IMG/VR virus record: IMGVR_UViG_3300045988_033662
Coordinates: 1 to 36,899 of that record
Direction: 5' to 3' (one strand)
Origin: a virus
DNA length: 36,899 nt
Position numbers and translations under genes: made by a program. Below, in pieces: positions 925-35,967 of the stretch. Each line of letters starts with the position of its first letter. Position 1 is the first letter of the stretch. The notes beneath the pieces were generated by a model. It was given only the letters and a program-made list of their open reading frames with translations. It was not told the DNA's origin and ran no database searches.

Positions 925-1340
925 TTTTATCTCACTCTCATTTTCAAGCCATCACATGATGCTTTTATTTAATTTAAGGCCTTTTTTTAGCCAATTTCTC
1001 CGACTTTGTTATCAGCAAGTCTAATAGTCAACAGCTTCATCATTGTTTCACGGATTGTTCTCGTAATGAATTAAGTCATCGACTTTCTTATAAATGATAT
1101 TGATTCTCTTGTTTCACATTTTCATTCCCTTCCTTTCTTATATCGCCCGCTCATGTTCCACGTGGAACACTTTCGCATGATTTTCGCTTCTTTTTGAAAC
1201 AAAAAACGGCTTATACTCACATTATAGCGTTAATTTAGCCGTTTTTCCAAAAAATCTTTGTATTTTATTATTTTTGTGTTCTTGCGTATCAGCGTTTCAT
1301 CTTACTGTCACACCAGACCATGCTCATTACCACGGGCGGG
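925..1340 (-). promoter_or_regulatory. 416-bp non-coding region between HNH and the membrane-protein gene; candidate cos/packaging site plus promoter and long leader
   Basis: No ORF longer than about 18 codons. Perfect 14-bp palindrome GTTCCACGTGGAAC at 1155..1168. G+C-rich motifs at 1144..1150 and 1333..1340. Minus-strand TTGGAA (1245..1250), 18 nt, TATAAT (1221..1226). Hairpin arms at 1202..1211 and 1237..1246. Near-copy of the cassette palindrome at 1186..1201. Confidence 0.3.
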
Positions 1341-4091: not shown

Positions 4092-4262
4092 TTATTTTTT
4101 TTGCTCAATAATGATTTTCCCGTTTTCTGCCTTAACTGTGATCTCTTTTTCAGGATCAAGCCCAGATTCCGCCACAATCTTTTTTGATATTGTCGCATTA
4201 TACGTGTTGACCTTTACGTCACCACCGAGCGTTTTGTACTTCAATTTTGCAAGTTTTGCCAT
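4092..4262 (-). CDS. Small AbrB/SpoVT (MazE-like) fold DNA-binding protein, 56 aa. Not in the ORF track (under 60 aa).
   Basis: Hand translation: MAKLAKLKYKTLGGDVKVNTYNATISKKIVAESGLDPEKEITVKAENGKIIIEQKK. SD GAGAGG lies upstream. The pattern resembles swapped-hairpin AbrB-type domains. Confidence 0.45.
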   Translation of the reverse strand: MAKLAKLKYKTLGGDVKVNTYNATISKKIVAESGLDPEKEITVKAENGKIIIEQKK

Positions 4263-4766: not shown

Positions 4767-4910
4767 TCAATGAATCCCTATATCGAAAATGATATTAAAT
4801 ATACAGAATCTAAGTAGGTTTTTAATAGAATTTTCTTATGAGCCACGTTTTGATTAGTCCGTGTAACTAATGTTTTTAAAATATGAGTATCAATATAGGG
4901 ATACATGATT
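4767..4910 (-). repeat. Second long-range inverted repeat: arms about 4767..4786 and 4890..4910 enclosing about 100 nt
   Basis: Core is atgNatccctatatNga against its reverse complement. One mismatch is a U.G pair only in minus-strand RNA. The right arm overlaps the stop codon of ORF 4909..5115. Confidence 0.5.
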
Positions 4911-5115
4911 AATCTTCCTCTTTAATCCATTTTAGAAAATTTTCTTTTGAGTAGAATGGACAATTCCCTTCACAGCTCCCAATGTCACAAGGTACATCTA
5001 TTCTATTTCCTTTTAAAGAATCATTGAAATTGTAACAGACACAATCTCCGTACATTTCCATTTCACCAATATAATTAGCGACTGCTTCCAGCTTCTCATT
5101 ATTTACAAATCCCAT
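4909..5115 (-). CDS. Cys-rich small protein (68 aa)
   Basis: Track ORF. Has CxC...C....C...C and ends ...FLKWIKEED. Resembles the N-terminal part of gene 7042..7671. Confidence 0.5.
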   Translation of the reverse strand: MGFVNNEKLEAVANYIGEMEMYGDCVCYNFNDSLKGNRIDVPCDIGSCEGNCPFYSKENFLKWIKEED

Positions 5116-5119
5116 ATTT

Positions 5120-5272
5120 TCAACCTCTTTTGACTAGCTGAACATCTGCAACATTTTCTTGTGACTTGACAGTGTAGCCAATAACGTAATATTTCTTTTT
5201 TAATTCTTCGAGTTCGTTCAAAAACTGCTGATAAGTGATGTAGATTACTTTTTTTATCAAATAGTTATTCAT
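5120..5272 (-). CDS. Hypothetical small protein (50 aa, not in track)
   Basis: Hand translation MNNYLIKKVIYITYQQFLNELEELKKKYYVIGYTVKSQENVADVQLVKRG. Fills the gap between two minus-strand ORFs. Confidence 0.4.
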   Translation of the reverse strand: MNNYLIKKVIYITYQQFLNELEELKKKYYVIGYTVKSQENVADVQLVKRG

Positions 5273-7041: not shown

Positions 7042-7671
7042 TTATTGTTCCTCCTTAATATTCTCAACAGCACAATTTTCTAAAACCTCTTTAATTGAAG
7101 TAGGTTTCTCATCTTCCCACTTCACAAATTTGAATAACTCATTAAATGACCAAAGCATCTTGTATTTATTTTCAGAAACCAATCCATTAAAATCATTTTC
7201 AGAAACCCAACCATTAAAAGCTTTTCTAGGTACGCTATTATATGCCATTAAATTATCACTCGGACTTCTGACAATGAATTTATAACCTCCTTTTTCTAAC
7301 CATTTCAAAATTTCATATTCCAATCTGCGCCAAATTTCTGTTAATAGATCTTTATCTGGTTCATCTAAATATAAACTAATATCGCCATTTTTATCTCTAG
7401 CAATATATTTATAGTATAGTTTGTAAACATGACGTAACAGCGAATATTCCGATCTCGTTAACTTAACAGGCTCTTTGTATTCTGATAAAAGTCACTTTAA
7501 TCTCGCCACTGAGCAATTACTTCTTTTTTTGCTCATTCCACATTCCGAGCAACGTCTTCCACCACATTGCCAAAAATCTCCTTCTTCACCTTTGCTAAAT
7601 GTAAAACTTGCAGCATCTCTCTCTTCGATAAACTTTAGCAATTTATCTCTATATTTTTCAGCATTTAACAT
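7042..7671 (-). pseudogene. 209-codon reading frame interrupted by a single in-frame TGA (7492..7494); nonsense allele or UGA read-through
   Basis: ATG 7671 (behind GGAGGA) gives 59 codons, then TGA, then 149 further sense codons in the same frame to TAA at 7042. No in-frame ATG occurs until 107 codons past the TGA; the track ORF 7042..7323 begins at TTG 7323. Frame checked codon by codon: (7671-7323) = 348 = 3 x 116. Confidence 0.7.
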
Positions 7672-7738: not shown

Positions 7739-8122
7739 TTAATCTAAACCTAGAAGGTGATATATATCATCCTCGTCGGGTTCCTCAAACTCCTCATGAT
7801 ATGAGTAAGGAATTCTACAGAACTCTGAATGGGCTTTATAACCTTTGTAAGTGAGTTTCATGATAGGGCTTAGACTATCATGAAGTTCGTCGTAAGCCTT
7901 CTCTAAAGCTTTATATTCAGCGTTTAGAGCGTCCTTACCTTCAGCAATTGCTTCGCCGAAGTCTGAAATGCCACATTCATAGACTTCTTGTTTCTGTCTA
8001 TGCAAGTTCTCAAGACTTGCCTGGCAGTCCTTGAACATCTTGAAATCATATAACTCAAGATCATATGAATCCTTGATGTTGTTTCTTTCATTTTCCACAT
8101 TCTTTAAATTTAAGTCTTCCAT
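7739..8122 (-). CDS. Hypothetical acidic protein (127 aa), first gene behind promoter cassette A
   Basis: Track ORF. No family recognised. Confidence 0.55.
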   Translation of the reverse strand: MEDLNLKNVENERNNIKDSYDLELYDFKMFKDCQASLENLHRQKQEVYECGISDFGEAIAEGKDALNAEYKALEKAYDELHDSLSPIMKLTYKGYKAHSEFCRIPYSYHEEFEEPDEDDIYHLLGLD

Positions 8123-8160
8123 ATACGTTTACTCCTTGGGGATTTCCCTTTCCTCTTTGC

Positions 8161-8229
8161 ATTATTATAATACCATAATATGGTAATAATTGCAATACTT
8201 TTTATCGTATTTTGTTTCTTTTTGAAACA
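8161..8229 (-). promoter_or_regulatory. Promoter cassette A: palindrome TGTTTCAAAAAGAAACA (8213..8229), -35 TTGCAA (8190..8195), 17 nt, TGgTATTAT (-10 = 8167..8172)
   Basis: Read on the minus strand. Same architecture and spacing as cassettes B, C and D. Confidence 0.65.
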
Positions 8230-8240
8230 TCATTTTTTTG

Positions 8241-8267
8241 ATAAAAAAAGACTAGGTTTTCCTAGTC
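8241..8267 (-). terminator. Rho-independent terminator (GACTAGG-AAAA-CCTAGTC + T7)
   Basis: 7-bp G/C-containing stem, 4-nt loop and T-run on the minus strand. Contains the stop codon of the frameshifted gene. Confidence 0.7.
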
Positions 8268-8557
8268 CGTTGTTCTAAAGAAATACTTAAGATCATCACC
8301 ATCGAAATGGTCAAGAACCCACTCATCAGCCTTGCGCCAAAGCTCGTCATACATCTCGGCAAGCATGTAGTTACTTCTGTAATGCTCGCTGATCTTCCAA
8401 TTCAGAACCATGACAAGCATATTCAATGTTGTTCTGCCATGCGTTGAACGCTCTTCGAGAAGTCCTCATAAAATGTTGTGCGTGGCTTATATCCTGTCAT
8501 TGCTTCGATATTCCACGTTTTAATTGTTCCGATATTAATTGTTTCCATGTTTTTCAT
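8262..8557 (-). pseudogene. Frameshifted small gene: 44-aa N-terminal ORF (8423..8557, good SD) and 52-aa C-terminal ORF (8262..8420, no SD) in different frames
   Basis: Hand translation gives MKNMETINIGTIKTWNIEAMTGYKPRTTFYEDFSKSVQRMAEQH* and MLVMVLNWKISEHYRSNYMLAEMYDELWRKADEWVLDHFDGDDLKYFFRTTD*. A third frame between them reads RRAFNAWQNNIEYA. Confidence 0.55.
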
Positions 8558-8619
8558 GTTTTTTTTACCTTCCTTTTTTGTGTGCCCACACTTTAGGCGG
8601 TGGGCTTGCCTTTATATCA

Positions 8620-8946
8620 TTAATTCATTGCCTGCACTTGGCTTGCGCTGAAAAAACTTGCTTTTTTCATGAACATTCTTTTCTGTTCTTCTGTCATTCC
8701 CTCACTGTTTTCAGTTTCCTTTGATACGCATTTCCAGATGTAGAACTGTGCAACAGCTTTTTCGCCTTTCTTCACACAATAGCCGAGCTTTTTCCATGCT
8801 TGGAATGTATGAATGTCTTCTGGTTCATCGAGGATCATTTTGTTGCCGTTTTCATCCTCAACCTCAAACTGTCTGCCAGTCTTTCCAATCTTTCCATTTT
8901 TCATAAGTTCAACTGCTTCATTGAATATAATTTGTGCGTTTGTCAT
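8620..8946 (-). CDS. Hypothetical protein; possible ArdC-N-like ssDNA-binding domain
   Basis: HTFQAWKKLGYCVKKGEKAVAQFYIWK ... FFSASQV resembles the W..LG..V.KGEK / F...Q pattern of ArdC N-terminal domains. This is from memory only. Confidence 0.35.
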   Translation of the reverse strand: MTNAQIIFNEAVELMKNGKIGKTGRQFEVEDENGNKMILDEPEDIHTFQAWKKLGYCVKKGEKAVAQFYIWKCVSKETENSEGMTEEQKRMFMKKASFFSASQVQAMN

Positions 8947-8962
8947 GTTTTTTCTTTCCTTT

Positions 8963-9100
8963 CTATTTCATCCAACCTAAGTTATATTCCTTGATTAACT
9001 GCTTTGCCTGTCTAACTGTAAAATCTGACTTTTTGATTCCAGTTTCACCATTTCTATTTAGAATCTGTAATGCTAATTCTTTGATTTCTTTTGTTGTCAT
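8963..9100 (-). CDS. Hypothetical micro-protein (45 aa, not in track), first ORF behind cassette B
   Basis: MTTKEIKELALQILNRNGETGIKKSDFTVRQAKQLIKEYNLGWMK. Confidence 0.4.
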   Translation of the reverse strand: MTTKEIKELALQILNRNGETGIKKSDFTVRQAKQLIKEYNLGWMK

Positions 9101-9135
9101 GTTTTTTTATCTCTCTTTCTTTTTATCTCTCTTTA

Positions 9136-9205
9136 CATTATTATAATATCATAATATAATAGCGATTGCAATACATTTTTCCGTATTTTGTTTCTTTTTG
9201 AAACA
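9136..9205 (-). promoter_or_regulatory. Promoter cassette B: palindrome 9189..9205, -35 TTGCAA 9166..9171, TGaTATTAT (-10 = 9143..9148)
   Basis: Same module as cassette A. The palindrome starts 2 nt after the DnaC-like stop codon. Confidence 0.65.
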
Positions 9206-9206
9206 T

Positions 9207-10031
9207 TTAACCGTTTAATATATCCATCAGTCTTGAGTCCTGCATCTTGTTTTTTCTTCTATCCTCTCCGCTTACAAGTACAGGAAGGCACATTTCAATA
9301 ATACGACTGTAGATTCTGGCTTTGCTTGTGTCTTCTGTATGGTACAAATCTGAATACTTTAGATTAGTGGTAATTATCATTGGTTTTCCGCTTCTGTATC
9401 TCGCATCAATAATGTTATACACCAACTCGTTAACGTACTCCGTGTTTCGCTCAATCCCGAGATCATCAATAACTAAAAGGTCAAACTCGTTCAGGCTGTC
9501 CAGATATTTCTGCTTCCCTTCATACATTCCCTGAATCGTATTGATGATTCGCGCAAAGTTTGTTACCAGACACGGAACACCGTTGTCAATCAATTCATTT
9601 GCAATACATGATGCAAGAAACGTCTTGCCCGTTCCAACTCCACCAAACAGAATAAGTCCTTTTCCTGCTTTCTTGAACTCGGAAAATCTTCTGACATAAC
9701 TCCTGCACATGTCGCTAGCCTTCTTTGATTTCTTATCGTCGTGATCAAATCGGCATTTCTGAAGTCCTCTGTCAGGAAAGCCTGTGTTCCTGTATTTTTC
9801 AATTTGAGCCAGTCTTTCCTGTTTCTTTTGCTCTGCAATCATGCATGAGCACATCACAGGAACATATCCACCAATCAGCGACAGCCATTCTCTTCGTGGC
9901 TCGTTGCATTTTCGGCAATAAATCATATTGCCGTTGGTATATTCATATTCAACATCACAAGTGGCAAGCATGCGCTGTATCGCTTCATCCGTCGGATCTT
10001 CATTTTTAAATATATCGTATATGCTTTTCAT
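9207..10031 (-). CDS. DnaC/IstB-like AAA+ helicase loader with N-terminal Cys cluster
   Basis: Walker A GGVGTGKTFLASCIANEL and Walker B LLVIDDLGIE. N-terminal C..C...C.C. Confidence 0.75.
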   Translation of the reverse strand: MKSIYDIFKNEDPTDEAIQRMLATCDVEYEYTNGNMIYCRKCNEPRREWLSLIGGYVPVMCSCMIAEQKKQERLAQIEKYRNTGFPDRGLQKCRFDHDDKKSKKASDMCRSYVRRFSEFKKAGKGLILFGGVGTGKTFLASCIANELIDNGVPCLVTNFARIINTIQGMYEGKQKYLDSLNEFDLLVIDDLGIERNTEYVNELVYNIIDARYRSGKPMIITTNLKYSDLYHTEDTSKARIYSRIIEMCLPVLVSGEDRRKNKMQDSRLMDILNG

Positions 10032-10417
10032 TTTTCTGTTCCTCCGTAAGCTCTTTCTATAATTTCATGTAAAATGCGTTCTTTATTTTCTTCTATAGCT
10101 TCAAGAATCCAGTCAAAATTGATTTTTGTTCCACCTGGTAAAATTTGCGGGTTATACCTTCCCCAACATGCACCTTTTTTGTCATATGCGTATACTGTAA
10201 CGTGCCAATAGCTTTTGAGTCGTTCTTTGATAAAACCTTTTTTATGCCATACATTTATCAGATGTTCTTTGTAGTCGTTTTCAACCTTTACAAATTCAAC
10301 CTCTATTCTTTCACCTTTAGAGTTTCTATCATTGAAACGATAAAATTTTCTTGTTCCTTTTGGGTTCATTGTCTCGATTGCATATTCATGGCCATCAATG
10401 ATTTTTGTTTCTTTCAT
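10028..10417 (-). CDS. Hypothetical protein (129 aa)
   Basis: Track ORF. ATGA overlap with the downstream gene. Preceded by the 39-nt element. Confidence 0.55.
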   Translation of the reverse strand: MKETKIIDGHEYAIETMNPKGTRKFYRFNDRNSKGERIEVEFVKVENDYKEHLINVWHKKGFIKERLKSYWHVTVYAYDKKGACWGRYNPQILPGGTKINFDWILEAIEENKERILHEIIERAYGGTEK

Positions 10418-10424
10418 GTTTCGT

Positions 10425-10463
10425 TCCTCCTGTAAGTTAGTGTTTATAGTGTTATCGCTTCAC
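10425..10463 (-). repeat. 39-nt intercistronic element, copy 2
   Basis: Minus strand reads GTGAAGCGATAACACTATAAACACTAACTTACAGGAGGA. Confidence 0.8.
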
Positions 10464-10470
10464 TCTTTTT

Positions 10471-10686
10471 TTATTTACTTAATTTGAATGGAAGCCATGA
10501 GGCTTTTAATTCATCAAGTTGGTTCATGATGATTTTTAATGTATATCTTCCACCGCAAGGAATATAAGTGGTTTCGCCGTCAAGGCTGAGGAAGTTTCCT
10601 TCCTCATTAACGATAGCGAAATAACTTTTTGTTCCTCCGCGAGGACCACATAAACCGAACATTTTAGATACATTTACAATTTTCAT
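10471..10686 (-). CDS. Hypothetical protein (71 aa)
   Basis: Track ORF with SD GGAGGT upstream. Confidence 0.5.
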   Translation of the reverse strand: MKIVNVSKMFGLCGPRGGTKSYFAIVNEEGNFLSLDGETTYIPCGGRYTLKIIMNQLDELKASWLPFKLSK

Positions 10687-10698
10687 AAGTATTACCTC

Positions 10699-10899
10699 CT
10701 AATCTTCATCAAATAGTGTGAATGTTTCATCTTCAATATTTGCACATAGATTATAATTGTACATATCATCTTGTTCGTAGTAGATACCATCAACCCACTC
10801 ATTGGCGTGTCTCATAATATCATAGTGATTTAAACTTTCGAAATAATCCATTCCTTTCAATTCTAATGCTTCTTTACTTACATAATATTTTGTTCCCAT
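10699..10899 (-). CDS. Hypothetical acidic protein (66 aa)
   Basis: Track ORF with SD AGGAGGAACGGAAAATG. Confidence 0.5.
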   Translation of the reverse strand: MGTKYYVSKEALELKGMDYFESLNHYDIMRHANEWVDGIYYEQDDMYNYNLCANIEDETFTLFDED

Positions 10900-10917
10900 T
10901 TTCCGTTCCTCCTAATA

Positions 10918-11076
10918 TTACTTGCTCAAACCGACAAACTTCCAGCCATTAGCCATTGCACATTCAAGGTCATGGCCATTGTATGCGACTTTGTATTCGC
11001 CATCTTTTTCAACGATGTAACCATCTGACCAGCTTCTAGTTTCATATGCTTTTTTAATTGCTTCTTCATATTTCAT
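10918..11076 (-). CDS. Hypothetical micro-protein (52 aa, not in track), first ORF behind cassette C
   Basis: MKYEEAIKKAYETRSWSDGYIVEKDGEYKVAYNGHDLECAMANGWKFVGLSK. GAGAGG SD upstream. Confidence 0.45.
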   Translation of the reverse strand: MKYEEAIKKAYETRSWSDGYIVEKDGEYKVAYNGHDLECAMANGWKFVGLSK

Positions 11077-11100
11077 ATCTTTGTACCTCTCTCTTTCTAC

Positions 11101-11169
11101 AACATTATAATATCATAATATGAAAGTGATTGCAATACTTTTTATCACATTTTGTTTCTTTTTGAAATA
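11101..11169 (-). promoter_or_regulatory. Promoter cassette C: palindrome 11153..11169 (one mismatch), -35 TTGCAA 11130..11135, TGaTATTAT (-10 = 11107..11112)
   Basis: Same module. The palindrome abuts the replisome-organizer stop codon at 11170. Confidence 0.6.
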
Positions 11170-11889
11170 TTATTTTCCGTAGAACATTTTCATGAGGTCT
11201 TCTTCCGACTCATAGCCATTCTGGTCGTATTTCTTCTCTGGCTGTTTCTCCTGCTTTGTATATTCATTCTTCAAAGGGAAGATTCCTTGCCAGTTATGCG
11301 TTATTGACTGATTAAGAATAGCAATCTTTGTCGTGTCGTTATTTCCTAATTCATCAAGTTTTTTCAGCATTAGTTTAAGAGCATACTCTGTCATTGGTTT
11401 CTTGATAAATGATCTCATCTGTACAAATGCTTTCAATGCATTCTGTAATTCTTCATTTTGTGTATATCCTGCAATCTGTTCATCATACGATTTCGACTTG
11501 CTCTTTCTTTCTTTCTTATTACTTACTGTATTATTATTTGTATTATTATCTGTATTACTTTCTTTCAAATTCTGAATATCAGCATTGCAATTTTTTATAT
11601 TCTGCCTTTCAAAATTTGAAAGTCTGCTTTTCAGTTCTCGCTTTCTTCCATCAAAATTTTGGATGTATAAGTATCCACATTCAATAAGTTTTGAAATTGC
11701 TGTCGATACCTTCGTTTTACTGCATTGGCAGAACTCTGCAAGATGCTCGTTACTTGCATAGCATCCCTTTTCGCCTTGGTCTAAGCTGTCAATTTCCATA
11801 AGAATAACTTTATCAAGCGCATTAAGCCTAGTGTCTAGCCACACTTTCTTTGGAATCCATACGCCCTTGAAGTCTCTGCTTTCGTTCAT
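11170..11889 (-). CDS. Phage replisome organizer (N-terminal winged-helix + C-terminal DnaD/DnaB_2-like domain)
   Basis: FKGVWIPKKVWLDTRLNALDKVILMEIDSL...NEHLAEFCQCSKTKVSTAISKLIECGYL at the N-terminus. C-terminal ALKAFVQMR...LKLMLKKLDEL...ILNQSITHNWQGIF. Low-complexity N/T-rich linker. Confidence 0.7.
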   Translation of the reverse strand: MNESRDFKGVWIPKKVWLDTRLNALDKVILMEIDSLDQGEKGCYASNEHLAEFCQCSKTKVSTAISKLIECGYLYIQNFDGRKRELKSRLSNFERQNIKNCNADIQNLKESNTDNNTNNNTVSNKKERKSKSKSYDEQIAGYTQNEELQNALKAFVQMRSFIKKPMTEYALKLMLKKLDELGNNDTTKIAILNQSITHNWQGIFPLKNEYTKQEKQPEKKYDQNGYESEEDLMKMFYGK

Positions 11890-12066
11890 GTTTTTGCTTC
11901 CTTTCTTTTCTACTCTACGATTTTCAATGTGATTTTCCTTTAATAACAGAAAACCGTATCACATTAAGTCCGCCAACCTAATGCAATACGGTTCATGTAC
12001 CTATTCAGTTTCATCACTGCTATTCAGCAATGGCGATTACTGAATAGGTGGTGTAGATTTTTGCTA
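11890..12066 (-). ncRNA. Structured ~175-nt 5' leader of the replisome-organizer gene (alternative hairpins plus a terminator-like hairpin)
   Basis: Minus-strand RNA has one 5' arm CCUAUUCAG (12048..12040) and two alternative 3' arms, CUGAAUAG (12027..12020) and CUGAAUAGG (12008..12000). A long hairpin AACCGUAU...AUACGGUU (11993..11952) follows, then UUUCUGUUAUU. Confidence 0.4.
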
Positions 12067-12068
12067 CT

Positions 12069-12136
12069 CTATAATATTATCATCATAATGTGATTAAGTC
12101 AACACATTTTGCCGACTTTTGTTTCTTTTTGAAACA
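12069..12136 (-). promoter_or_regulatory. Promoter cassette D: palindrome 12120..12136, -35 TTGACT 12097..12102, TGaTAATAT (-10 = 12074..12079)
   Basis: Same palindrome-to-(-35) spacing as cassettes A-C. The cassette overlaps the last 12 codons of the DUF1064-like ORF. Confidence 0.6.
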
Positions 12137-12497
12137 TCTTGATGTCTTTACTCGTAACTATGCTGATTGTGTAATCTGGATATTTGTATTCGAACAGTTT
12201 TTGCTTTAGGCGGAAAACGTCAGTAATTACTGCTGTAGAGCCTTTTACGTCCTCGATGATATAACTATCATCTTCACACAAGATGTACCTGAAATCGGCT
12301 TTATACACGATTCTACGCCATGTCTTGCCATTCTTCCTGAATGATGGCAAAAGTTCAAAAGAAGGCTGTAATTCCAATGCCCTTATAACTCCTGCACGTT
12401 CCAGAATATTCAGCTGTGCATATCGTTCAGCTTCAAGCTTTGAATCAAACTTGATGCCATCAGCAATCGTCTTTGTATTGTGATATTTTCTATACAA
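12099..12497 (-). CDS. DUF1064-like (endonuclease-fold) phage protein
   Basis: YHNTKT..DGIKFDSKLEAERY..L...........LELQP.F.L........R...Y.ADF.Y......IIEDVKG matches what I recall for DUF1064. Confidence 0.55.
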   Translation of the reverse strand: MYRKYHNTKTIADGIKFDSKLEAERYAQLNILERAGVIRALELQPSFELLPSFRKNGKTWRRIVYKADFRYILCEDDSYIIEDVKGSTAVITDVFRLKQKLFEYKYPDYTISIVTSKDIKMFQKETKVGKMC

Positions 12498-15492: not shown

Positions 15493-15601
15493 TTTTCTTG
15501 TTTTCCTTTCTTTTTGAAACATCAATTTCGTACTGTTCAATAATTTTGTTTAATTCTTCTGCGTGACCGTTTTCTACGATTTCTTCTACGATTTCAAACA
15601 T
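15479..15601 (-). CDS. Hypothetical micro-protein (40 aa, not in track)
   Basis: MFEIVEEIVENGHAEELNKIIEQYEIDVSKRKENKKNERI. GGGAG SD lies 9 nt upstream. Sits between cro-like and erf. Confidence 0.4.
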   Translation of the reverse strand: MFEIVEEIVENGHAEELNKIIEQYEIDVSKRKENKKNERI

Positions 15602-15605
15602 GTTT

Positions 15606-15800
15606 TCAGCTCCCAATAATTATATTCGCATATTCATATCCAAACACTTTGCAGAACACTTTGACAAGCTCTGTAGAAGGATTATGCGTTCCTTGCTCAA
15701 TACAAGCATAATGGCTCGTTGATATTCCGAGCATTTCTGCAACGTCCTTCTGAGTAAAACCCTTTGAAATTCTGAATGCTTTCAATTCTGCTCTTTTCAT
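15606..15800 (-). CDS. Cro-like XRE-family HTH protein
   Basis: GFTQKDVAEMLGISTSHYACIEQG is an HTH_3 pattern. Divergent from the repressor gene. Confidence 0.65.
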   Translation of the reverse strand: MKRAELKAFRISKGFTQKDVAEMLGISTSHYACIEQGTHNPSTELVKVFCKVFGYEYANIIIGS

Positions 15801-15948
15801 TTCGTGCCCCCTTTCTGCCTTACATTATAAACCCCTTGTAATCAAATTGCAACTACTTTTCATCAAAAGACGGTTATTTTTTATTGTTTCAAATAGCTAC
15901 GGTGTGTTATCATCGAAATATAAACTTTTTTAGGTGGTGTAAAGAATA
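15801..15948. promoter_or_regulatory. Genetic-switch region with divergent promoters
   Basis: Minus strand: TTGCAA (15847..15852), 17 nt, TATAAT (15824..15829). Plus strand: TTGTTT, 18 nt, TGtTATCAT around 15885..15914. Partly palindromic TTGTAATCAAATTGCAA overlaps the minus-strand -35. A TGTTTCAAA half-motif overlaps the plus-strand -35. Confidence 0.55.
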
Positions 15949-16260
15949 ATGATAAACAATAAATCGATTGGAAGGAAACTAAAAGAACTGCGCAACTCCC
16001 GTAACCTTAGACAGTCTGAGCTTGCCGAACTTGTCGGACTTTCAAGACCTGCAATATCGAATATTGAGTCTGGGAAACGTTCCTTGACTCTTTCCACTTT
16101 GAAACGTTTTTGCGAGGTTTACGGCATTGACATTTCATATTTTGGCATTGATACGTCAACCTATGATGAAACGACAGACCTCACACTGCGCATCGAGTCT
16201 CTGTTTCATGATCTTCCTGAACCTGAGAAAGAAGATAATGAAGTTGTACCTAGACAGTAA
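15949..16260 (+). CDS. CI-like XRE-family repressor (no peptidase domain)
   Basis: LRQSELAELVGLSRPAISNIESGKR is an HTH_3 pattern. First gene of the plus-strand lysogeny operon, upstream of the integrase. Confidence 0.7.
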   Translation: MINNKSIGRKLKELRNSRNLRQSELAELVGLSRPAISNIESGKRSLTLSTLKRFCEVYGIDISYFGIDTSTYDETTDLTLRIESLFHDLPEPEKEDNEVVPRQ

Positions 16261-16451
16261 AAATGTTTCTGATTGAAACCATCTGTCGAAAAAAAAGAGT
16301 TGTCTAACTCATACTCAATTTTGAGATCTTCCTGTTCAGCATAAAGATTAAACAGCAAAGAATAGAAACTTTCAGCGTCCATATGCTCACCGCCTTTCAA
16401 TGGCTAGTATGGACTGCTTTTTTTATTTTCAATCAATCGGAGGTATTTTTT

Positions 16452-17786
16452 ATGAGAAAAAAACTGCGAGTGGCAGGATATGCTCGTGTTTCAACAGATG
16501 AACAAAAAAAATATGGTTACTCAATACAGGCACAAATTGACGAAATAACGCAATGGTGCAACGACAACGACCATGACTTACTACATATCTACATTGATGA
16601 AGGCTACTCCGCAAGCACCATGAAACGCCCGCAACTGCAATCCATGCTGTCAAACTTGAAAAATCTTGATGCCATAGCTTTCACACGCCTTGACCGTTTA
16701 TCACGTAACGTCCTTGAAGCAAACAAGATGCTTGAACTTCTTCAGCAAAACAATGTCGCCATGATTTCCATTTGTGAGGACGATATAAACACGTCCACTG
16801 CAAACGGCTTGTTCATGTTCAACCTAAAAGTCAACCTTGCAGAACATGAATTAAAAAAAGGCTCTGAACGCATCAAAGCCGTATTTGAATACAAGATTGC
16901 ACAAGGCCAACCTATCACTGGCAATGTTCCTTTTGGTTACAGGATTGCCACGGAAAACGGAAATAAACGCATTGTGATTGATGAATCCAAAGCACCAATA
17001 GTGAAAGACATTTTCGCATCATTTCTCCTGCATCAATCAGTCCATTACACTGTCGAATACGTCAACAAGAAATACGGCCTGTCTAGACCTTACATGTCAT
17101 ATATGCACATACTAAAAAATGAATTTTATGCAGGATCATACCGAGGGAACTCCAACTACGCCGAGCCATACATCACGAAAGAAACATACAATGCCGTTCA
17201 GACCGCATTACAAGCCAACATACACACGGGAATACAGCGCCATACATATTTATTCACTGGACTGTTAAGATGCCCAGAATGCCGCTCTAAGCTTGTTGGA
17301 GTGAGCCATCCAAAAGGTGGCAAGCGATATTATTACTATAGATGTAACAATGCCCACTCGGTGCATACATGCACGCATAAAAAGCACTATGCGGAACTTG
17401 CAACGGAAAAATATCTGCTGTCTAACCTTGACGATCTTTTGAAAAACCATATAGCCACAATATCAAGCATCACTTCTGAAACAAAGAACACAACTGAAAA
17501 GGAATTAAAAGAACTAAGAAAAGAACTTGATAATCTGAATTATATCTTCATTAAGAAGCGTATGCCTGTAAGTACCTATGAACGTCTATATGCAGAAACG
17601 GAAGACAAAATAAAAAGGCTTGAATCTTTCAAGCCTCAAAGTACTGATCATCTTAATCAATTTTTGAACAGCGGTTGGCGCTCAATATATGAGAACCTCA
17701 CACGTGAGAACAAGCGCACGCTGTGGCGCAATGTCCTTGAATCTGTCCATGTTTCACCTGATGGAATAGAAGTTTTCTTCAAGTAA
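16452..17786 (+). CDS. int: Large serine recombinase (integrase)
   Basis: MRKKLRVAGYARVSTDEQ is a resolvase-type catalytic Ser region, followed by a recombinase domain. Zinc ribbon CPECRSKL...YYYRCNN...C and a C-terminal coiled coil. ATG 16452 follows GGAGG; the track ORF start at 16383 is upstream read-in. Confidence 0.9.
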   Translation: MRKKLRVAGYARVSTDEQKKYGYSIQAQIDEITQWCNDNDHDLLHIYIDEGYSASTMKRPQLQSMLSNLKNLDAIAFTRLDRLSRNVLEANKMLELLQQNNVAMISICEDDINTSTANGLFMFNLKVNLAEHELKKGSERIKAVFEYKIAQGQPITGNVPFGYRIATENGNKRIVIDESKAPIVKDIFASFLLHQSVHYTVEYVNKKYGLSRPYMSYMHILKNEFYAGSYRGNSNYAEPYITKETYNAVQTALQANIHTGIQRHTYLFTGLLRCPECRSKLVGVSHPKGGKRYYYYRCNNAHSVHTCTHKKHYAELATEKYLLSNLDDLLKNHIATISSITSETKNTTEKELKELRKELDNLNYIFIKKRMPVSTYERLYAETEDKIKRLESFKPQSTDHLNQFLNSGWRSIYENLTRENKRTLWRNVLESVHVSPDGIEVFFK

Positions 17787-17953: not shown

Positions 17954-17980
17954 TAAAAAAAAGCTCCCTTTCGGAAGCTC
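17954..17980 (-). terminator. Rho-independent terminator (GAGCUUCC-GAAA-GGGAGCUU + U8)
   Basis: GNRA-type tetraloop hairpin with a U-run on the minus strand, overlapping the stop codon of ORF 17979..18212. Confidence 0.75.
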
Positions 17981-18212
17981 AAAGTTCAATATGAATTGTT
18001 TCACCTGTTTTTAAGATTGCAACAGGAACGTAGTAACCATAATCGTCGCACACTATTTTAACCTCGCTAACATCTGATGTGGCAACTCTTGGAGTGCCAT
18101 CATAAATAATGAATACTTTTTCTTCATCATGCATCTGCTCAATCTGGCTCTCTAGATAATAGCTAGTATCAACTTTAAAATTTTTCTGTCTTGCTCTTTT
18201 TAATATTTTCAT
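17979..18212 (-). CDS. Moron-type hypothetical protein (77 aa) with its own promoter and terminator
   Basis: Track ORF bracketed by a consensus promoter and a strong terminator. No family recognised. Confidence 0.6.
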   Translation of the reverse strand: MKILKRARQKNFKVDTSYYLESQIEQMHDEEKVFIIYDGTPRVATSDVSEVKIVCDDYGYYVPVAILKTGETIHIEL

Positions 18213-18243
18213 GTTTTGTTTTCCTCTCTCTCTTTACAACTAC

Positions 18244-18296
18244 ATTATAATACCATAACGTTATAATGTCAAACGTTTGTTCGCACTTCTTTGACA
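18244..18296 (-). promoter_or_regulatory. Consensus sigma-A-type promoter TTGACA (18267..18272), 17 nt, TATAAT (18244..18249). The -35 lies inside inverted repeat TGTCAAA-N16-TTTGACA (18267..18296).
   Basis: Read on the minus strand. Exact consensus hexamers with exact 17-nt spacing. Confidence 0.7.
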
Positions 18297-21835: not shown

Positions 21836-22936
21836 TTATGCCGTTCTCTTCCACATGAATACAGCTAAATATGGTGGCATATTGTTATGTTTTCCGCCTC
21901 CACCTTCGAGTCCAGTTCTGTTGCCATCTTCGTTTTTAGTCGCTTTTATGTTAGGCACGATATTAGTAGTTTCAGTCTTAGTTAGAGACTTAGCCCCAAA
22001 ATTGGTTGATATGAGAGTAGCGTTCTTGTTAGCAACAATTGTCCAGTCGTTTGTATCATGATTATGCTCAGGCATTTCGGTAGCGTTTAATTGATGATAG
22101 TATTCACCGCCTGTTTCACCACTTGCAATGTCTGGTTTTTCTGCCCCAAGTGATCCAAATCTTGTATTCGAATTTGTGTCCGCAACTGCTCCTGCTCCAA
22201 TTAGGAAACGTCCTTTCAGCCTTTCCCACGTTCCGCCAAACAGTGTTGATGGATCAGTACTGTTTACGCTCATGTAGATAGAGCCAACTGGATAAGTCTT
22301 GTTAAGTAGGTTTTCGGTGATTCCAGTATCGCCCTTTGCGCCGTTTGTTACCGTAAATGTTGATGTTGTTCCATCATTATATGCAATCGTATATGTATCA
22401 ACCAGTCCACTTGTTGATGTCTTTGCAATTGTTTTAATGCCTTTGCCGTTGCTTACGTTGAATGTTCTTTTAGTTCCGTCTGTAAGTGATATTTCGTAAG
22501 TATCAGTCAACCCACTTGTGCTAGCTTTTTTGATTTCCTTGATGCTCTTCCCGTCCTGACCTTTTACGCCCTGTGGCCCTTGAGGCCCTGTATCGCCTTT
22601 TTCTCCAATGTCGCCCTTTGCGCCGTTTGTTACCGTAAATGTTGGCTTTGTGCCATCTGTAAGTGTGATTGTATAAGTGTCTACAAGCCCACTTGTTCCT
22701 GTTTTGCTAATACTTGAGATTCCGTTTCCGTTTCTGTTTGTCACCGTGAAAGTTGACGTTGTTCCATCTGTCATCGTGATTGTGTAAGTATCAGTCAGCC
22801 CACTTGTGCTAGTTTTTTTGATTTCCTTGATGCTCTTTCCTTCCTGACCTTTAAGCATCAATATTTTCACGATAGGTTTTCTAATATATTCGCTCATTTT
22901 GGCTTTTACTATAGTTTTTCTAATATTCTCGCTCAT
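21836..22936 (-). CDS. Tail fibre: four ~35-aa beta-rich repeats + collagen G-X-Y stretch + C-terminal phage tail-collar domain
   Basis: Repeats SI.EI.KT.TSGL.DTYTIT.TDGT..TFTVTNG x4. GDIGEKGDTGPQGPQGVKGQDG. C-terminal YPVGSIYMS...GGTWERL...FL...G...GGE..H.L...EMP.H.H. ATGA overlap with the upstream ORF. Confidence 0.7.
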   Translation of the reverse strand: MSENIRKTIVKAKMSEYIRKPIVKILMLKGQEGKSIKEIKKTSTSGLTDTYTITMTDGTTSTFTVTNRNGNGISSISKTGTSGLVDTYTITLTDGTKPTFTVTNGAKGDIGEKGDTGPQGPQGVKGQDGKSIKEIKKASTSGLTDTYEISLTDGTKRTFNVSNGKGIKTIAKTSTSGLVDTYTIAYNDGTTSTFTVTNGAKGDTGITENLLNKTYPVGSIYMSVNSTDPSTLFGGTWERLKGRFLIGAGAVADTNSNTRFGSLGAEKPDIASGETGGEYYHQLNATEMPEHNHDTNDWTIVANKNATLISTNFGAKSLTKTETTNIVPNIKATKNEDGNRTGLEGGGGKHNNMPPYLAVFMWKRTA

Positions 22937-32177: not shown

Positions 32178-32259
32178 TCTCGTTACCGCCCCTCGTTAGT
32201 ATTTTCTATTTGAAACATTTTTACACACACATATTAGCATAAATGCACGTTTATATCAA

Positions 32260-34325: not shown

Positions 34326-34877
34326 TTACTTGAAATTTTTTATTCGATATGATTTGTTATAAGTCTTTTGGTCCTTAATCATCATTTTTAAAAAATCTTC
34401 TCTTGTGAAATCAGATAATCTAAATACTTCTTCTGGCTTCATTCCTAATTCCTTACATATTTCTTTTGTTGATTTTCCTTCATCTAATAATTCTTTTACA
34501 ATTGCTTTCATTGGTTCTAATAAATGAGTTCCCCTTGCTCTATTATGTGTAATAGTTCCATAAACATCTTCTGCATGATCTTTATGGTCTACAATAACAA
34601 CTGGAACTTTATTTTTTAATAATGTTTTTAATGGTTCTCTGCCTGATACAGTCCATCTATGAAAACCATCTATAATTGTATAATCAGGTCTTATAACTAT
34701 TGGCATAGTCCAACCATTTACTAATATAGACTGAACTAATAATTCAAGATTTTGTTCTGATACTTTATTTGGGTTGTAATTATTTGGTTTTAATAAATCT
34801 CTATCAACAAATTTAACATTTTCTAAAGGTTCTAATATATTTTTATTTTCATATTTTTTCATTTCATTTTCTTTCAT
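34326..34877 (-). CDS. IbrB-like ParB/Srx-fold protein
   Basis: LKPNNYNPNKV...IIDGFHRW...THNRARGTH motifs of the IbrB-type ParB-like nuclease domain. ATG 34877 follows GAGGTG; the track start at 34883 is GTG. Confidence 0.6.
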   Translation of the reverse strand: MKENEMKKYENKNILEPLENVKFVDRDLLKPNNYNPNKVSEQNLELLVQSILVNGWTMPIVIRPDYTIIDGFHRWTVSGREPLKTLLKNKVPVVIVDHKDHAEDVYGTITHNRARGTHLLEPMKAIVKELLDEGKSTKEICKELGMKPEEVFRLSDFTREDFLKMMIKDQKTYNKSYRIKNFK

Positions 34878-35967
34878 TTCCACTCACCTCAGATACATAC
34901 ATAAATAACTGCATGTCTAACGCTCTTAATGCTCTTCCTTTGGGGTCTCCACCAATTACTATATTACATAACTCTTTGTAATGTTTTTGATTTAAAAATG
35001 GTCCATATTTAATTAATATTCTATTAATTAGTTTTTTTACATTCTGCATAGGTTTATTATCAAATCTCCATTCTTCTTTTAACATCTCAAAGAATTTATT
35101 CTTATAATCAACTTCTTCATCTTTCTTTGCTTGTTTATTTTTCTTTTGTCTTCTAAATAATTCAGTATCATAATAAAGCATTGCCATATAAGCATTTGGC
35201 TCTCTTTTACAAATCTTATCAAATAGTTCTGGATAGAATTCACACATCTGAGTTAAACTTCTAGCAGTATCTATACTAAAGAATTGGCTTATTCTTAATC
35301 TATTAATTGGAACTCCTACTTGATACATGAATTTATAGGCATCTGGGAATTCTAAGTTATTATCTCTTATATACATCCAGACGTCTTTATCAGTCCAGTC
35401 ATATATAGGAAACATTTTATCTTGTTCTTTTCTTGTTGCTAAATTCATCATTCTTTGAACACTTTCACTTACTCTAACGCCAATTACTGTTACACAATTT
35501 TTATTTTTTTTATCCATGAACCTTTGATAGGTATCATGTCTTTCATCAAGTAATGGGTCATTTGTAATTGCGAATTTTGGTTTTTGTCTTATCCAAACAT
35601 CTTTTTTAGTTTCATCCCAACAAATAAAACTTTCATCATTCGTTAATTGATTAAAGCAATTATAATGCTTTACCTGAATACACCACCAATTAAAAGGTAC
35701 TCCAATACTCAGCCATTGTAATCTCATGCTTTTAACTTGTTTTTCTACACATGGGAATATTGCTTCTTCGTCTATAAAGTCAACTATTAATTTTGATTTG
35801 TCTATTTCTCCACTTTGACACATTTTAAATATTAAATCATTTAAGCAAATGCTATCTTTACCACCGCTTACTGATAATTCAATTCTACTAGCAGTTTTAA
35901 ATATATTTTTTATTCTTATCTTAGCCATAGTTACAACATCAATGTTTGAGTATTGTTTTTTAATCAA
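34864..35967 (-). CDS. IbrA-like PP-loop ATP pyrophosphatase (PAPS-reductase family with DUF3440-like C-terminal region)
   Basis: PP-loop SVSGGKDS near the N-terminus, ...VIGVRVSES... and 367 aa. The start is TTG 35967 (behind GGGGAG) or ATG 35928. Confidence 0.65.
   Translation of the reverse strand: MIKKQYSNIDVVTMAKIRIKNIFKTASRIELSVSGGKDSICLNDLIFKMCQSGEIDKSKLIVDFIDEEAIFPCVEKQVKSMRLQWLSIGVPFNWWCIQVKHYNCFNQLTNDESFICWDETKKDVWIRQKPKFAITNDPLLDERHDTYQRFMDKKNKNCVTVIGVRVSESVQRMMNLATRKEQDKMFPIYDWTDKDVWMYIRDNNLEFPDAYKFMYQVGVPINRLRISQFFSIDTARSLTQMCEFYPELFDKICKREPNAYMAMLYYDTELFRRQKKNKQAKKDEEVDYKNKFFEMLKEEWRFDNKPMQNVKKLINRILIKYGPFLNQKHYKELCNIVIGGDPKGRALRALDMQLFMYVSEVSGNERK

Follow-up and report, generated by a model that had tools for sequence, protein, structure and literature searches.

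Repeated early-region junction modules with a conserved 15-bp dyad in a temperate siphovirus related to Cequinquevirus phages

Introduction

Repeated promoter-bearing modules between genes have been described from T4-type phages as PeSL (promoter-early stem-loop) cassettes (Arbiol et al. 2010, PMC2839356; Comeau et al. 2014, PMC4122927). The stem-loops of these cassettes are stable and G/C-rich, have been shown experimentally to be terminators, and vary in their position within the motif. In the cluster A mycobacteriophages (L5, Bxb1) the stoperators are known (PMC9283540, PMC6550527), asymmetric 13–14-mers that equal the operator of the early lytic promoter and covary with the repressor. The TP901-1 operator, AGTTCAT-GAAAC-GTGAACT, comes with a distal third site (PMC4941734, PMC7250872).

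The window, i.e. the whole stretch of 36,899 nucleotides analysed here (IMG/VR record IMGVR_UViG_3300045988_033662), is syntenic with the L. delbrueckii phages c5, LL-Ku and Ld17 and with PMBT4. Its genome order is that of c5 and LL-Ku and the genes are homologous, DnaC and DnaD being only 28–32% identical to the c5-like counterparts. The GenBank records of c5 (EU340421.2) and LL-Ku (AY739900.2) annotate terminator–promoter pairs at the matching junctions; -35, -10 and terminators are marked in them, and the 15-bp element described below is unmarked.

Results

Anatomy of the four cassettes

The four near-identical promoter modules with a palindrome reported in the preliminary description belong to a repeat family that spans about 94 nt per module on the minus strand. 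The 17-bp palindrome TGTTTC-N5-GAAACA is perfect at 8213–8229, 9189–9205 and 12120–12136 and has one mismatch at 11153–11169. When up to one mismatch was allowed, six matches were found against 0.19 expected, and none of 100 shuffles reached six. The full 17 bp are present in the window, but only 15 bp, GTTTC-N5-GAAAC, are conserved in relatives, where the outer T and A vary; the dyad core is thus GTTTC-AAAnA-GAAAC. With copy B as reference, identity was 76% for copy A, 81% for copy C and 64% for copy D. Every cassette includes the dyad, A-tracts, a -35 (TTGCAA or TTGACT), a 17-nt spacer and a TG-extended -10 (TATTAT or TAATAT), as had been described. Also the distance of 26 nt from dyad centre to first -35 base was recovered in all four copies when dyad centres (8221, 9197, 11161, 12128) and the matching -35 starts (8195, 9171, 11135, 12102) were measured. 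The 12-mer TTTCAAAAAGAA has six exact occurrences and two near matches, all on the transcribed strand.

Cassette A (8138–8231, minus strand) has its dyad at 8214–8228, the -35 TTGCAA at 8195–8190 and the -10 (TGg followed by TATTAT) at 8172–8167. It follows a terminator (8268–8249), not a stop codon, and downstream of it are the leader and RBS of a 127-aa ORF (7739–8122). In cassette B (9114–9207, minus strand; -35 TTGCAA 9171–9166, -10 TATTAT 9148–9143) the dyad (9190–9204) lies one base past the DnaC-like stop codon, and the cassette heads a 45-aa ORF (8963–9100) and an ArdC_N-like ORF (8620–8946). The dyad of cassette C (11078–11171, minus strand; dyad 11154–11168 with left arm ATTTC, -35 TTGCAA 11135–11130, -10 11112–11107) adjoins the stop codon of the DnaD/HTH_36 replication gene, and the cassette leads into four small variable ORFs and then the DnaC-like gene. 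Cassette D (12045–12138, minus strand; -35 TTGACT 12102–12097, -10 TAATAT 12079–12074) is orthologous to T3-P2 of phage c5 and is followed, after a 180-nt leader, by the DnaD-like gene; a second inverted repeat, AATGTG-N10-CACATT, surrounds its -35. The palindrome had been placed at the preceding stop codon in copies B, C and D, which is correct for B and C but not for D, where the dyad (12121–12135) lies within the final codons of the DUF1064 gene and the frame crosses the palindrome to stop inside the -35 (TTGAct).

A consensus scan found promoter-like sites to be no commoner in the window than in shuffled sequence. Judged by consensus and conservation, the cassettes are probably promoters, and the sequence data support reading the modules as conserved sigma-A-type promoter cassettes that would split the early region into units.

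Further dyad copies and dyad-free promoters

The degenerate copies and the half-site noted earlier are real and are located at 1186–1200, 15506–15520 and about 15886–15900; the perfect-arm copy at 16265–16279 and the one-mismatch copy at 32202–32216 are additional to them. The pre-late copy GTTTCAAAAAGAAGC (1186–1200, minus strand) stands immediately 3' of a terminator T-run, and its 19-nt core TTTCAAAAAGAAGCGAAAA is common to promoter P6 of c5-like phages. The promoter-less copy GTTTCAAAAAGAAAG (15506–15520, minus strand), just 5' of the ERF start codon and within a 45-aa ORF, is identical in 33 of 33 relatives, and the perfect-arm copy GTTTCTGATTGAAAC (16265–16279), in the interval from the CI-like stop codon to the integrase start, is kept in 27 of 27. 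The one-mismatch copy GTTTCAAATAGAAAA (32202–32216, minus strand) is at the TerL/portal junction. Site X, GTTTCAAATAGCTAC (15886–15900, plus strand), is a partial site over the -35 of the putative CI promoter (TTGTTT-18-TGtTATCAT); it reads GCAAC in some relatives and is missing in both relatives with a replaced CI module.

The predicted main early promoter, that of the Cro-like gene (15824–15852, minus strand; TTGCAA-17-TATAAT), has AAAAGTAgTTGCAAT in common with cassettes A–C, and none of the dyad copies of the window lies over it. Direct reading of the sequence shows TTTnGATGA direct repeats flanking this promoter, which are better candidates for Cro/CI operators than the 15-mer. A fifth promoter with the same type of core and leader (18244–18272, minus strand; TTGACA-17-TATAAT), predicted to drive the moron at 17979–18212 beside the integrase gene, is without dyad. 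The dyad is thus separable from the promoter core.

Conservation among relatives

The search of related phages suggested in the preliminary description covered 39 close metagenomic phages and 40 more distant DnaC relatives. Perfect dyads, 2–6 per 10–20 kb, were found in all 39 of the former, counts that are not independent events since these phages are closely related, and the dyad was absent from all 40 of the latter. At the site after DnaC, 39/39 relatives have perfect arms, with an arm diversity of 0.000 vs 0.13 upstream and 0.36 in the next 15 nt downstream, which supports maintenance of the dyad by selection and not by chance. All four G/C positions in the arms are fixed, in contrast to the neighbouring A/T-rich positions, which vary. 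Although not used in finding the sites, the loop AAAnA, AAA at -52/-50, AAAA at -43/-40 and GT at -38/-37 were nearly invariant. Arm variants seen were ATTTC, GAAAT, GAAAG, GAAGC and GAAAA.

With the transcription start assumed, the four copies and 108 of the 113 promoter-linked sites of relatives are centred near -61 and present the same helix face, and one 10-bp deletion variant retains the helical phase. Of 124 early-strand matches to an extended -10 promoter, 109 carry the element. It also occurs without promoter, at the DnaD/DnaC junction in 11 relatives and at the junction of DnaC and the next gene in four. Perfect dyads are kept by the five family members that have lost CI or carry a replacement (L057, L064, L077, L078 and L086).

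Variable gene slots behind the cassettes

Among the 39 relatives, 15 distinct first genes were found after DnaC, 14 after DnaD and 10 after the terminator-type junction. The genes behind cassettes are present in only 4–10 of the 39, and six downstream gene families sit behind more than one upstream context. The cassette is linked to the upstream gene until about +5, and the sequence further 3' tracks the downstream gene. Homology breakpoints cluster just 3' of the cassettes, and also occur at many gene borders without one. The cassettes head exchangeable, hypervariable accessory-gene slots, a feature on which the preliminary description did not remark, and are a real, selected module of regulation and recombination.

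Comparison with c5-like phages

The c5-like phages carry the same element (GTTTCAAAnAGAAAA / GTTTCAAAnAGAAA) upstream of the -35, and their core CAAAAAGTgTTGAC... TGTTATATAAT can be aligned to the window cassettes. Promoter P2 of c5 and LL-Ku, after the DUF1064/Holliday-junction-resolvase gene, and P4, after DnaC, correspond to cassettes D and B, respectively. The gap from 15-mer to -35 is 17, 18 or 19 nt in c5, LL-Ku and PMBT4. The right arm is GAAAA in c5-like phages vs GAAAC in the window, so the element is there not a full dyad. These phages are virulent and have 0–4 copies, whereas the dyad is perfect and universal in the window clade. In them the element lies directly 3' of a real terminator T-run, so it might simply result from a T-tail lying beside an A-rich UP element, while the window clade has lost the terminator at three of the four junctions. 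The c5-like element is also found over the -35 position of other promoters. The Cro proteins of Ld17 and Ld3 are identical and the phages have two vs no element copies, i.e. there is no covariation with Cro.

The alignments indicate that the cassette layout, in a further point beyond the preliminary description, is inherited from an ancestor in common with the Cequinquevirus lineage, and part of the fixed 26-nt distance is due to common descent.

Candidate binding factors

CI-like, Cro-like and AbrB-like proteins had been named as possible factors. The complete genomes of c5 and PMBT4 encode no homologues of the CI, AbrB-like or IbrA/IbrB proteins and the element is kept in them, so these proteins are unlikely readers. 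The Cro-like candidate stays viable, being the only HTH protein common to all element-carrying phages. As the reader must be common to the virulent c5-like phages, the Cro-like protein, RNA polymerase and a host factor remain, the Cro-like protein being our first guess.

Discussion

Proposed function of the module and alternatives

On balance, the module is probably a junction unit derived from a Cequinquevirus ancestor, which would restart transcription and promote gene exchange and in which a 15-bp protein contact site would time the promoters. It would consist of the 15-bp GTTTC-AAAnA-GAAAC near -61, A-tracts, a sigma-A promoter, and a leader with RBS; the phased A-tracts at -63/-59, -53/-50 and -43/-40 resemble an UP element. 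Each module would restart early transcription at the head of a small accessory-gene slot, and because it is repeated, homologous exchange between copies could swap, insert and delete the slot genes, as in T4 PeSL cassettes. We infer that the 15-bp element is contacted by a protein in a sequence-specific manner and is under selection of its own, apart from the promoter; with one helical turn between them, the two 5-bp arms would suit a dimer. Most likely the element modulates or times promoters that are already strong, and at promoters whose -35 it overlaps it may act as a block. It is unlikely to serve an obligatory class I activator.

The main alternative dispenses with a dedicated factor: the element would form the distal edge of a set of three phased A-tracts touched by the alpha subunits of RNA polymerase, perhaps stemming from the meeting of T-tail and UP element, with incidental dyad symmetry. 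The invariant A-tracts at about -61, -51 and -41 are consistent with this, as are the phase-preserving deletion variant and the element's presence on most early-strand extended -10 matches. Phased A-tracts near -43, -54 and -65 are said to be typical of Bacillus promoters (a finding attributed to Helmann, 1995), and in c5 the bases after the element fit the UP-element consensus, reportedly that of Estrem et al. from 1998, at 13 of 14 positions. We nevertheless regard this alternative as rather unlikely: the G/C positions of the arms are invariant next to varying A/T-rich ones, the element is perfect at promoter-less junctions and between the CI-like and integrase genes, and the promoter at 18272–18244 has the same core without it. 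Distinctly less probable is coordination of the four promoters by a dimeric phage factor that would work from -61 as a class I activator. The regular position of the centres would agree with it, and the Cro-like protein, its only viable candidate of the three, is encoded by every element-bearing phage and could be expected to act at site X over the -35 of the CI promoter. The activator role proposed in the preliminary description from the position is, however, not specifically supported, the -35, TG-extended -10 and phased A-tracts being already good and the promoters strong on paper. The c5-like gap varies from 17 to 19 nt, promoter-less copies are conserved, copy number does not covary with Cro sequence, and the TTTnGATGA repeats would be better Cro/CI operators.

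Distributed operators of the CI-like repressor, silencing internal promoters and blocking prophage read-through in the manner of TP901-1 OR/OL/OD or of stoperators, would fit the sites at gene boundaries and on both sides of the CI gene, the N-terminal domain of CI, 33–36% identical to Tuc2009/phiLC3-type repressors, the operator of the related TP901-1 with its distal third site, and the absence of a dyad from the moron promoter near the integrase gene, a promoter that should be active in lysogens. Yet the main lytic promoter has no overlapping dyad, a site at -61 would not occlude a promoter, and perfect dyads are retained by the five CI-deleted or CI-replaced members and the element by virulent c5-like phages without CI homologue, which makes such operators quite improbable. 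The canonical parS is TGTTNCACGTGAAACA, a 16-bp palindrome, and the half-sites TGTTTC/GAAACA of the dyad equal those of parS. The dyad might thus be a parS-like loading site with one extra central base, from which a ParB-family protein of phage or host acts at a distance, like KorB on RK2. A near-canonical parS, TGTTCCACGTGGAACA (1154–1169, one mismatch), is 20 nt away from the pre-late copy, the window encodes two ParB_N-type proteins (35960–36583 and 34326–34883), and ORF1 of c5 is also a ParB-nuclease. The dyad, however, differs from parS in spacing and has AAA instead of the central CG, phages with 65–68% identical IbrB homologues have no such sites, c5-like phages have the element without the parS-like site, and ParB_N proteins near terminase are usually related to nucleases or modification; we consider this reading very improbable. 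An RNA hairpin in read-through transcripts, either as a boxB-like antitermination site or as a processing site, is already largely refuted. The 5-bp stem and A-rich pentaloop resemble lambda boxB, and copies B, C and D, without upstream terminator, would be transcribed. However, the hairpin reaches about -4.6 kcal/mol at best and fails to form in copy C and in the pre-ERF copy, transcription would seldom reach copies that stand behind terminators, and arm changes are never compensated; the stem thus lacks the compensatory changes expected if it were a nut boxB of the lambda type, and Rfam gave no family match to the element.

Comparison with known systems

As in CRP-type class I sites and UP elements, the element is centred near -61 on the promoter side of the helix and the A-tracts stand at the expected alpha contacts. 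Class I sites are centred near -61.5 or whole helical turns further upstream, and the window centres fit the first of these positions when the start is assumed. The core does not appear weak as in class I promoters, with TTG of the -35, the TG extension, TAnnAT and the A-tracts conserved. Unlike CRP-type sites, the element is also found promoter-less, and the promoters look self-sufficient; we know of no activator for the window cassettes. Within the UP-element region (-59 to -38) the proximal AAAA at -43/-40 is invariant, and the distal half is a poor fit in the window and a good one in c5.

With stoperators the window has in common many copies of a short site at gene boundaries and a strand bias relative to transcription. 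Identity with them was rejected, as the sites are absent from the early promoter, do not covary with the repressor, and persist without it.

In PeSL cassettes and in the window alike, a repeated intergenic module begins at the upstream stop codon, ends at the next RBS and contains an AT-rich stretch followed by a sigma-70-type promoter; it precedes small ORFans of hypervariable regions, and recombination between its copies explains indels and replacements. Compared with the PeSL stem-loop, the window dyad is weak and AT-rich, with 5-bp repeats that do not vary in sequence or position, and it is not a terminator: no terminating stem-loop was found in the cassettes (folding no stronger than -4.6 kcal/mol, two copies unfolded, no U-run after), separate terminators being found only at copy A and the pre-late site. 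Host and phage type also differ from those of T4-type phages, the window coming from a gut-type temperate siphovirus with a low-GC Gram-positive host. The four-fold early restart with its dyad would thus be a variant of layouts known in Lactobacillus phages and T4-like phages.

Structure of the promoter cassettes

The palindrome TGTTTC-N5-GAAACA (17-mer) was found as three perfect copies and one with a single mismatch in the four minus-strand promoter cassettes A–D (8138–8231, 9114–9207, 11078–11171 and 12045–12138), and altogether six sites with at most one mismatch to the 17-mer were detected against 0.19 expected by chance. The repeated unit is about 94 nt long. In all four copies the -35 is TTGCAA or TTGACT and the -10, TATTAT or TAATAT, is preceded by TG; 17 nt separate the two boxes, and the distance from the palindrome centre to the -35 is 26 nt in every one. 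Both degenerate copies, one of them the pre-late copy at 1186–1200, were also present, as was the partial site between the CI and Cro genes (about 15886–15900). The preliminary description was sound as a whole. It had the palindrome of cassette D abutting or overlapping the preceding stop codon; there the DUF1064 frame instead passes through the palindrome and ends inside the -35. Further dyad sites lie at 16265–16279 and 32202–32216, the former within a 58-aa ORF with a good RBS (16206–16382, minus strand) that overlaps the 3' end of the CI-like gene in antisense orientation and is called by gene callers on some related contigs.

Among 246 distinct site contexts the conserved core was 15 bp, GTTTC-N5-GAAAC (the element, or dyad), with the loop AAAAA, AAATA or AAAGA, and the outer T and A of the 17-mer varied. 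The asymmetric 12-mer TTTCAAAAAGAA lies on the transcribed strand every time.

The phage genome and its relatives

The window begins and ends with the same 119 bases and is hence a circular phage genome of about 36.8 kb; its G+C content is about 37%. The plus strand carries only a CI-like HTH gene (15949–16260) and a serine recombinase gene (16383–17786). All other genes are on the minus strand, where the early order is Cro-like HTH (15606–15800), ERF, putative nuclease, SSB, NinB-like, DUF1064, DnaD/HTH_36 replication protein and DnaC-like loader. These are followed by many small ORFs, the holin, a GH25-CW_7-LysM lysin and an HNH gene and, beyond the circle junction, by ParB-like, IbrA-like PAPS-reductase and IbrB-like genes, TerL and the structural genes. 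A tail-region ORF (21836–22936, 366 aa) includes tandem repeats of 282–288 nt at 22322–22852, 75–79% identical.

The relatives gathered by a pattern scan and a DnaC-based search were 39 contigs from one IMG metagenome, forming a single tight family with DnaC identities of 83–95%. The same phage was seen in several further metagenome assemblies, each time on contigs of at most 50 kb, and all Cro-encoding contigs found were likewise metagenomic and of at most 50 kb. A 20-mer scan of species genomes for the host produced scattered single matches only and no prophage; lysin and tail-protein searches indicated nothing narrower than low-GC Gram-positive hosts. Loss of the lysogeny module is seen in several family members (L057, L064, L077, L078 and L086): L057 and L078 by partial deletions, L086 with a fusion of the CI N-terminus to the C-terminus of the integrase, L077 with lysis genes and L064 with a transposase gene upstream of cro.

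Conservation and selection

Each family member carries two to six perfect GTTTC-N5-GAAAC sites per 10–20 kb, and no dyads were found in 40 more distant DnaC relatives. For the selection test, sites were chosen by genome position and not by sequence to avoid circularity. The arms were perfect at all 39 post-DnaC loci, with a diversity of 0.000; for the 15 coding bases upstream the value was 0.13, and for the next 15 bases downstream 0.36. As search positions, the arms, TTG and TAnnnT were excluded as evidence of conservation elsewhere in the cassette; among the other positions, the loop AAAnA, AAA at -52/-50, AAAA at -43/-40 and GT at -38/-37 were nearly invariant, and variation was found at -49 to -44 and in the spacer. 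From these near-invariant loop and A-tract positions, the upstream region is seen to have three CAAAA(A) units at -64, -54 and -44. Phased A-tracts of this kind go with strong Gram-positive promoters. The cassettes are real, selected regulatory modules.

Dyads and promoters occurring apart

Between the DnaD stop codon and the RBS of DnaC, 11 relatives have a dyad and no promoter, and in four relatives a promoter-less dyad is present after DnaC. The right arm is GAAGC in seven of the 11 promoter-less DnaD sites, which hints at relaxed constraint there; the seven probably represent a single event. The promoter at 18272–18244, driving a moron beside the integrase gene, has the core and leader of the cassettes and no dyad, and a third promoter type present in some relatives also lacks one. 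Altogether 109 of the 124 extended -10 matches on the early strand are accompanied by a dyad. The moron itself (17961–18272), found in few family members only, is self-contained and lies between the tail-fibre and integrase genes, with a perfect TTGACA-17-TATAAT promoter, a 77-aa ORF (17979–18212) and its own terminator.

The element in Lactobacillus delbrueckii phages

TerL is 76–77% identical to that of the L. delbrueckii phages c5, LL-Ku, PMBT4, Ld3, Ld17 and phiLdb, with which the gene order is also shared, lysis genes ahead of packaging genes included. Identities to the c5/PMBT4 homologues are 56–57% for HNH, 47–49% for a 198-aa protein, 40–44% for the Cro-like protein and 28–32% for DnaD and DnaC. 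Megablast found no match between the early region and isolated phages, and the kinship to Cequinquevirus is visible only in proteins and inside the cassettes. The c5 and LL-Ku records have annotated terminator–promoter pairs at matching junctions (in c5, T3-P2 after the DUF1064/resolvase gene and T6-P4 after DnaC), and PMBT4 has an 81-nt promoter repeat in four copies that can be aligned with the window cassettes.

In the c5-like phages the element, GTTTCAAAnAGAAA[A], is situated between the terminator T-run and the promoter, and 17, 18 or 19 nt separate the 15-mer from the -35, compared with 18 nt in the window. It is present in four copies in c5, two in LL-Ku, two in Ld17 and one in PMBT4, and in none in phiLdb and Ld3; counted separately, one copy of a variant, ATTTCAAAAAGAAGC, precedes the holin gene in c5, Ld17, PMBT4, phiLdb and Ld3. 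This pre-holin variant has 19 nt in common with the pre-late copy of the window and provides the annotated -35 of P6 in the c5 record. As an IMG/VR scan for the c5-type arrangement gave only c5, Ld17 and four isolated matches, the element is confined to the Cequinquevirus-like lineage. In LL-Ku (4865–5140 of the locus compared) the Cro-like gene seems frameshifted in comparison to c5 and Ld17, with the HTH region out of frame in the annotated ORF22.

Possible roles and readers of the element

The class I activation by one dimeric factor that the preliminary description favoured is one of several readings that fit. It is weakened by promoters that look self-sufficient, by the dyads without a promoter, by the variable gap between the 15-mer and the -35 in relatives and by the elimination of two of the three factors it proposed. 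An RNA hairpin was rejected, as folding reaches -4.6 kcal/mol at most, two copies are unfolded and arm changes are never compensated; an Rfam search of the window found no family match. A mini-ORF running through the cassette (ATG TTT CAA AAA GAA ACA, MFQKET) was rejected as well: the ATG is missing in many copies (AAGTTTC, TAAGTTTC, TAGTTTC, CAGGTTTC), no RBS precedes it and the differences between copies are not synonymous. It is conceivable, if rather doubtful, that the element is the recognition site of a new regulator, phage- or host-encoded and common to the Cequinquevirus-like lineage, which would time every restart promoter and act at sites covering the -35 boxes of the CI promoter and the c5 holin promoter P6. 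In that case the cassettes would be integron-like, promoter-equipped slots for the accessory-gene trade of temperate Gram-positive phages, for example in candidate anti-defence genes, with shuffling of the kind described for the promoter-early stem-loop (PeSL) cassettes occurring outside the T4 group. The best-supported description treats the element as a conserved putative protein-contact site.

The CI-like, AbrB-like and IbrA/IbrB-like proteins are unlikely readers of such a site, no homologue of them being found in PMBT4 or c5. Perfect dyads are kept in five family members with CI deleted or replaced, and covariation with CI found no footing, since the sole "divergent CI" (L086) is the CI–integrase deletion fusion and thus uninformative as an allele. 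An IbrB/ParB-like binder was rejected, as FP_Taranis and vB_RanS_PJN03 encode homologues of 65–68% identity and have no dyads. The AbrB-like candidate (56-aa ORF, 4092–4262), also rejected, has a weak SymE/AbrB-fold match only and no homologue in the phage collection, c5-like phages included. Absence does not count against a ParB-nuclease-type protein, as one is shared at about 30% identity. The Cro-like protein is the only HTH protein in every element carrier; outside the family the only homologues found in a search were weak XRE-type matches of 33–38% identity. No Cro covariation was detected within the c5-like phages, and Ld17 and Ld3 have identical Cro proteins with two versus no element copies. 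None of the known motifs compared (CodY, GlnR/TnrA, LexA, CRP/FNR and the sigma-B and sigma-W -35 boxes) fits the element. The Cro-like protein, RNA polymerase itself or a host factor remain as candidate readers.

Of three direct repeats TTTnGATGA within 15800–15949, one covers the -10 of the CI promoter, one is upstream of the -35 of the Cro promoter and one falls in the spacer of the latter. They are distinct from the dyad and look like better candidate Cro/CI operators. The TP901-1-type repressors, distant homologues of the window CI-like protein, have AGTTCAT-GAAAC-GTGAACT operators, one of them distal; the likeness to the window dyad is a resemblance and not a test. In an Oscillospiraceae MAG (L032, 59% G+C), an AT-rich island at 7330–7410 carries the identical 17-mer TGTTTCAAAAAGAAACA and, after a gap of 17 nt, TTGACA-17-TATACT, before an XRE-HTH and S24 peptidase (LexA/CI-like) gene; the -35 is overlain by a second copy, TGTTGACATATGAAACA, which is degenerate. 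Identity of the encoded protein to the window CI is only a generic 25%. A search by eye for a weaker second dyad over the core promoter, as at this locus, found none.

Neighbouring signals and genes

A perfect 16-bp palindrome, TGTTCCACGTGGAACA, is present at 1154–1169, 20 nt after the pre-late element, and is one mismatch from the canonical parS consensus. It is kept in the family while its flanks vary, directly upstream of variable ParB-like genes, and is absent in c5-like phages. At about 1040–1113 there is a ParB_N-type gene remnant ('INIIYKKVDDLIHYENNP*NNDEAVDY*') with several in-frame stops; the gene at this position in relatives is intact and encodes 259 aa (MENKKMNIVYKKVKDLIPYENNPRNNDEAVDYV...). 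The stretch 34326–36583, just upstream of the terminase genes, encodes a ParB-like protein (207 aa), an IbrA-like PAPS reductase (367 aa) and an IbrB-like ParB_N+HTH protein (185 aa), annotated elsewhere as 'co-activator of prophage gene expression'; the three-gene arrangement is shared with Faecalibacterium phage FP_Taranis.

A terminator hairpin (AAAACGGCT...AGCCGTTTT) has its 5' arm within the spacer of the promoter-like TTGGAA-18-TATAAT at 1205–1250, so that transcripts arriving from upstream would terminate and those begun there, without the 5' arm, would read on. The 180-nt leader after cassette D (11890–12069) includes a 20-pair terminator-like hairpin (11994–11951), situated before the DnaD-like gene, as well as the inverted repeats CTATTCAG/CTGAATAG; these structures could be an attenuator or a replication origin. 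Around the cassette D -35, the inverted repeat AATGTG-N10-CACATT (12087–12108), largely kept in relatives, could be a separate operator.

Exchangeable gene slots and comparison with known cassettes

Nearly all relatives carry the genes from Cro through DUF1064 as well as DnaC; the ORFs right behind the cassettes are found in only 4–10 of the 39. The first genes belong to 15 families behind the DnaC cassette, 14 behind the DnaD cassette and 10 behind a terminator-type junction; six gene families have more than one upstream context, and the 127-aa ORF of the window was found behind three different junctions. According to mutual-information analysis, the cassette is linked to the upstream gene until about +5, beyond which the sequence tracks the downstream gene. 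Homology breakpoints between the window and its relatives are concentrated just downstream of the cassettes, and other gene borders have them too.

The best-supported description is of a lineage-inherited junction module, in which the element is combined with an UP-like tract and a sigma-A promoter, that heads exchangeable accessory-gene slots and recombines like PeSLs. If this is true, the slots are an obvious place to search for host-takeover and anti-defence genes in this phage group, and in lactic acid bacteria the element may be useful as a compact promoter part. Since this short and strictly conserved element also occurs in dairy phages that can be cultivated (c5, LL-Ku and Ld17), its function is directly testable.

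The same gene-exchange behaviour has been described for the PeSL cassettes of T4-type phages (PMC2839356; PMC4122927), and the window cassettes likewise head exchangeable accessory-gene slots and recombine. They would then represent an independent second case of repeated promoter cassettes being both expression units and recombination points, taking the PeSL idea beyond the T4-like phages, which have Gram-negative hosts, to small temperate phages that infect low-GC Gram-positive bacteria. The cassettes are in this respect a variant of kinds of system already known.
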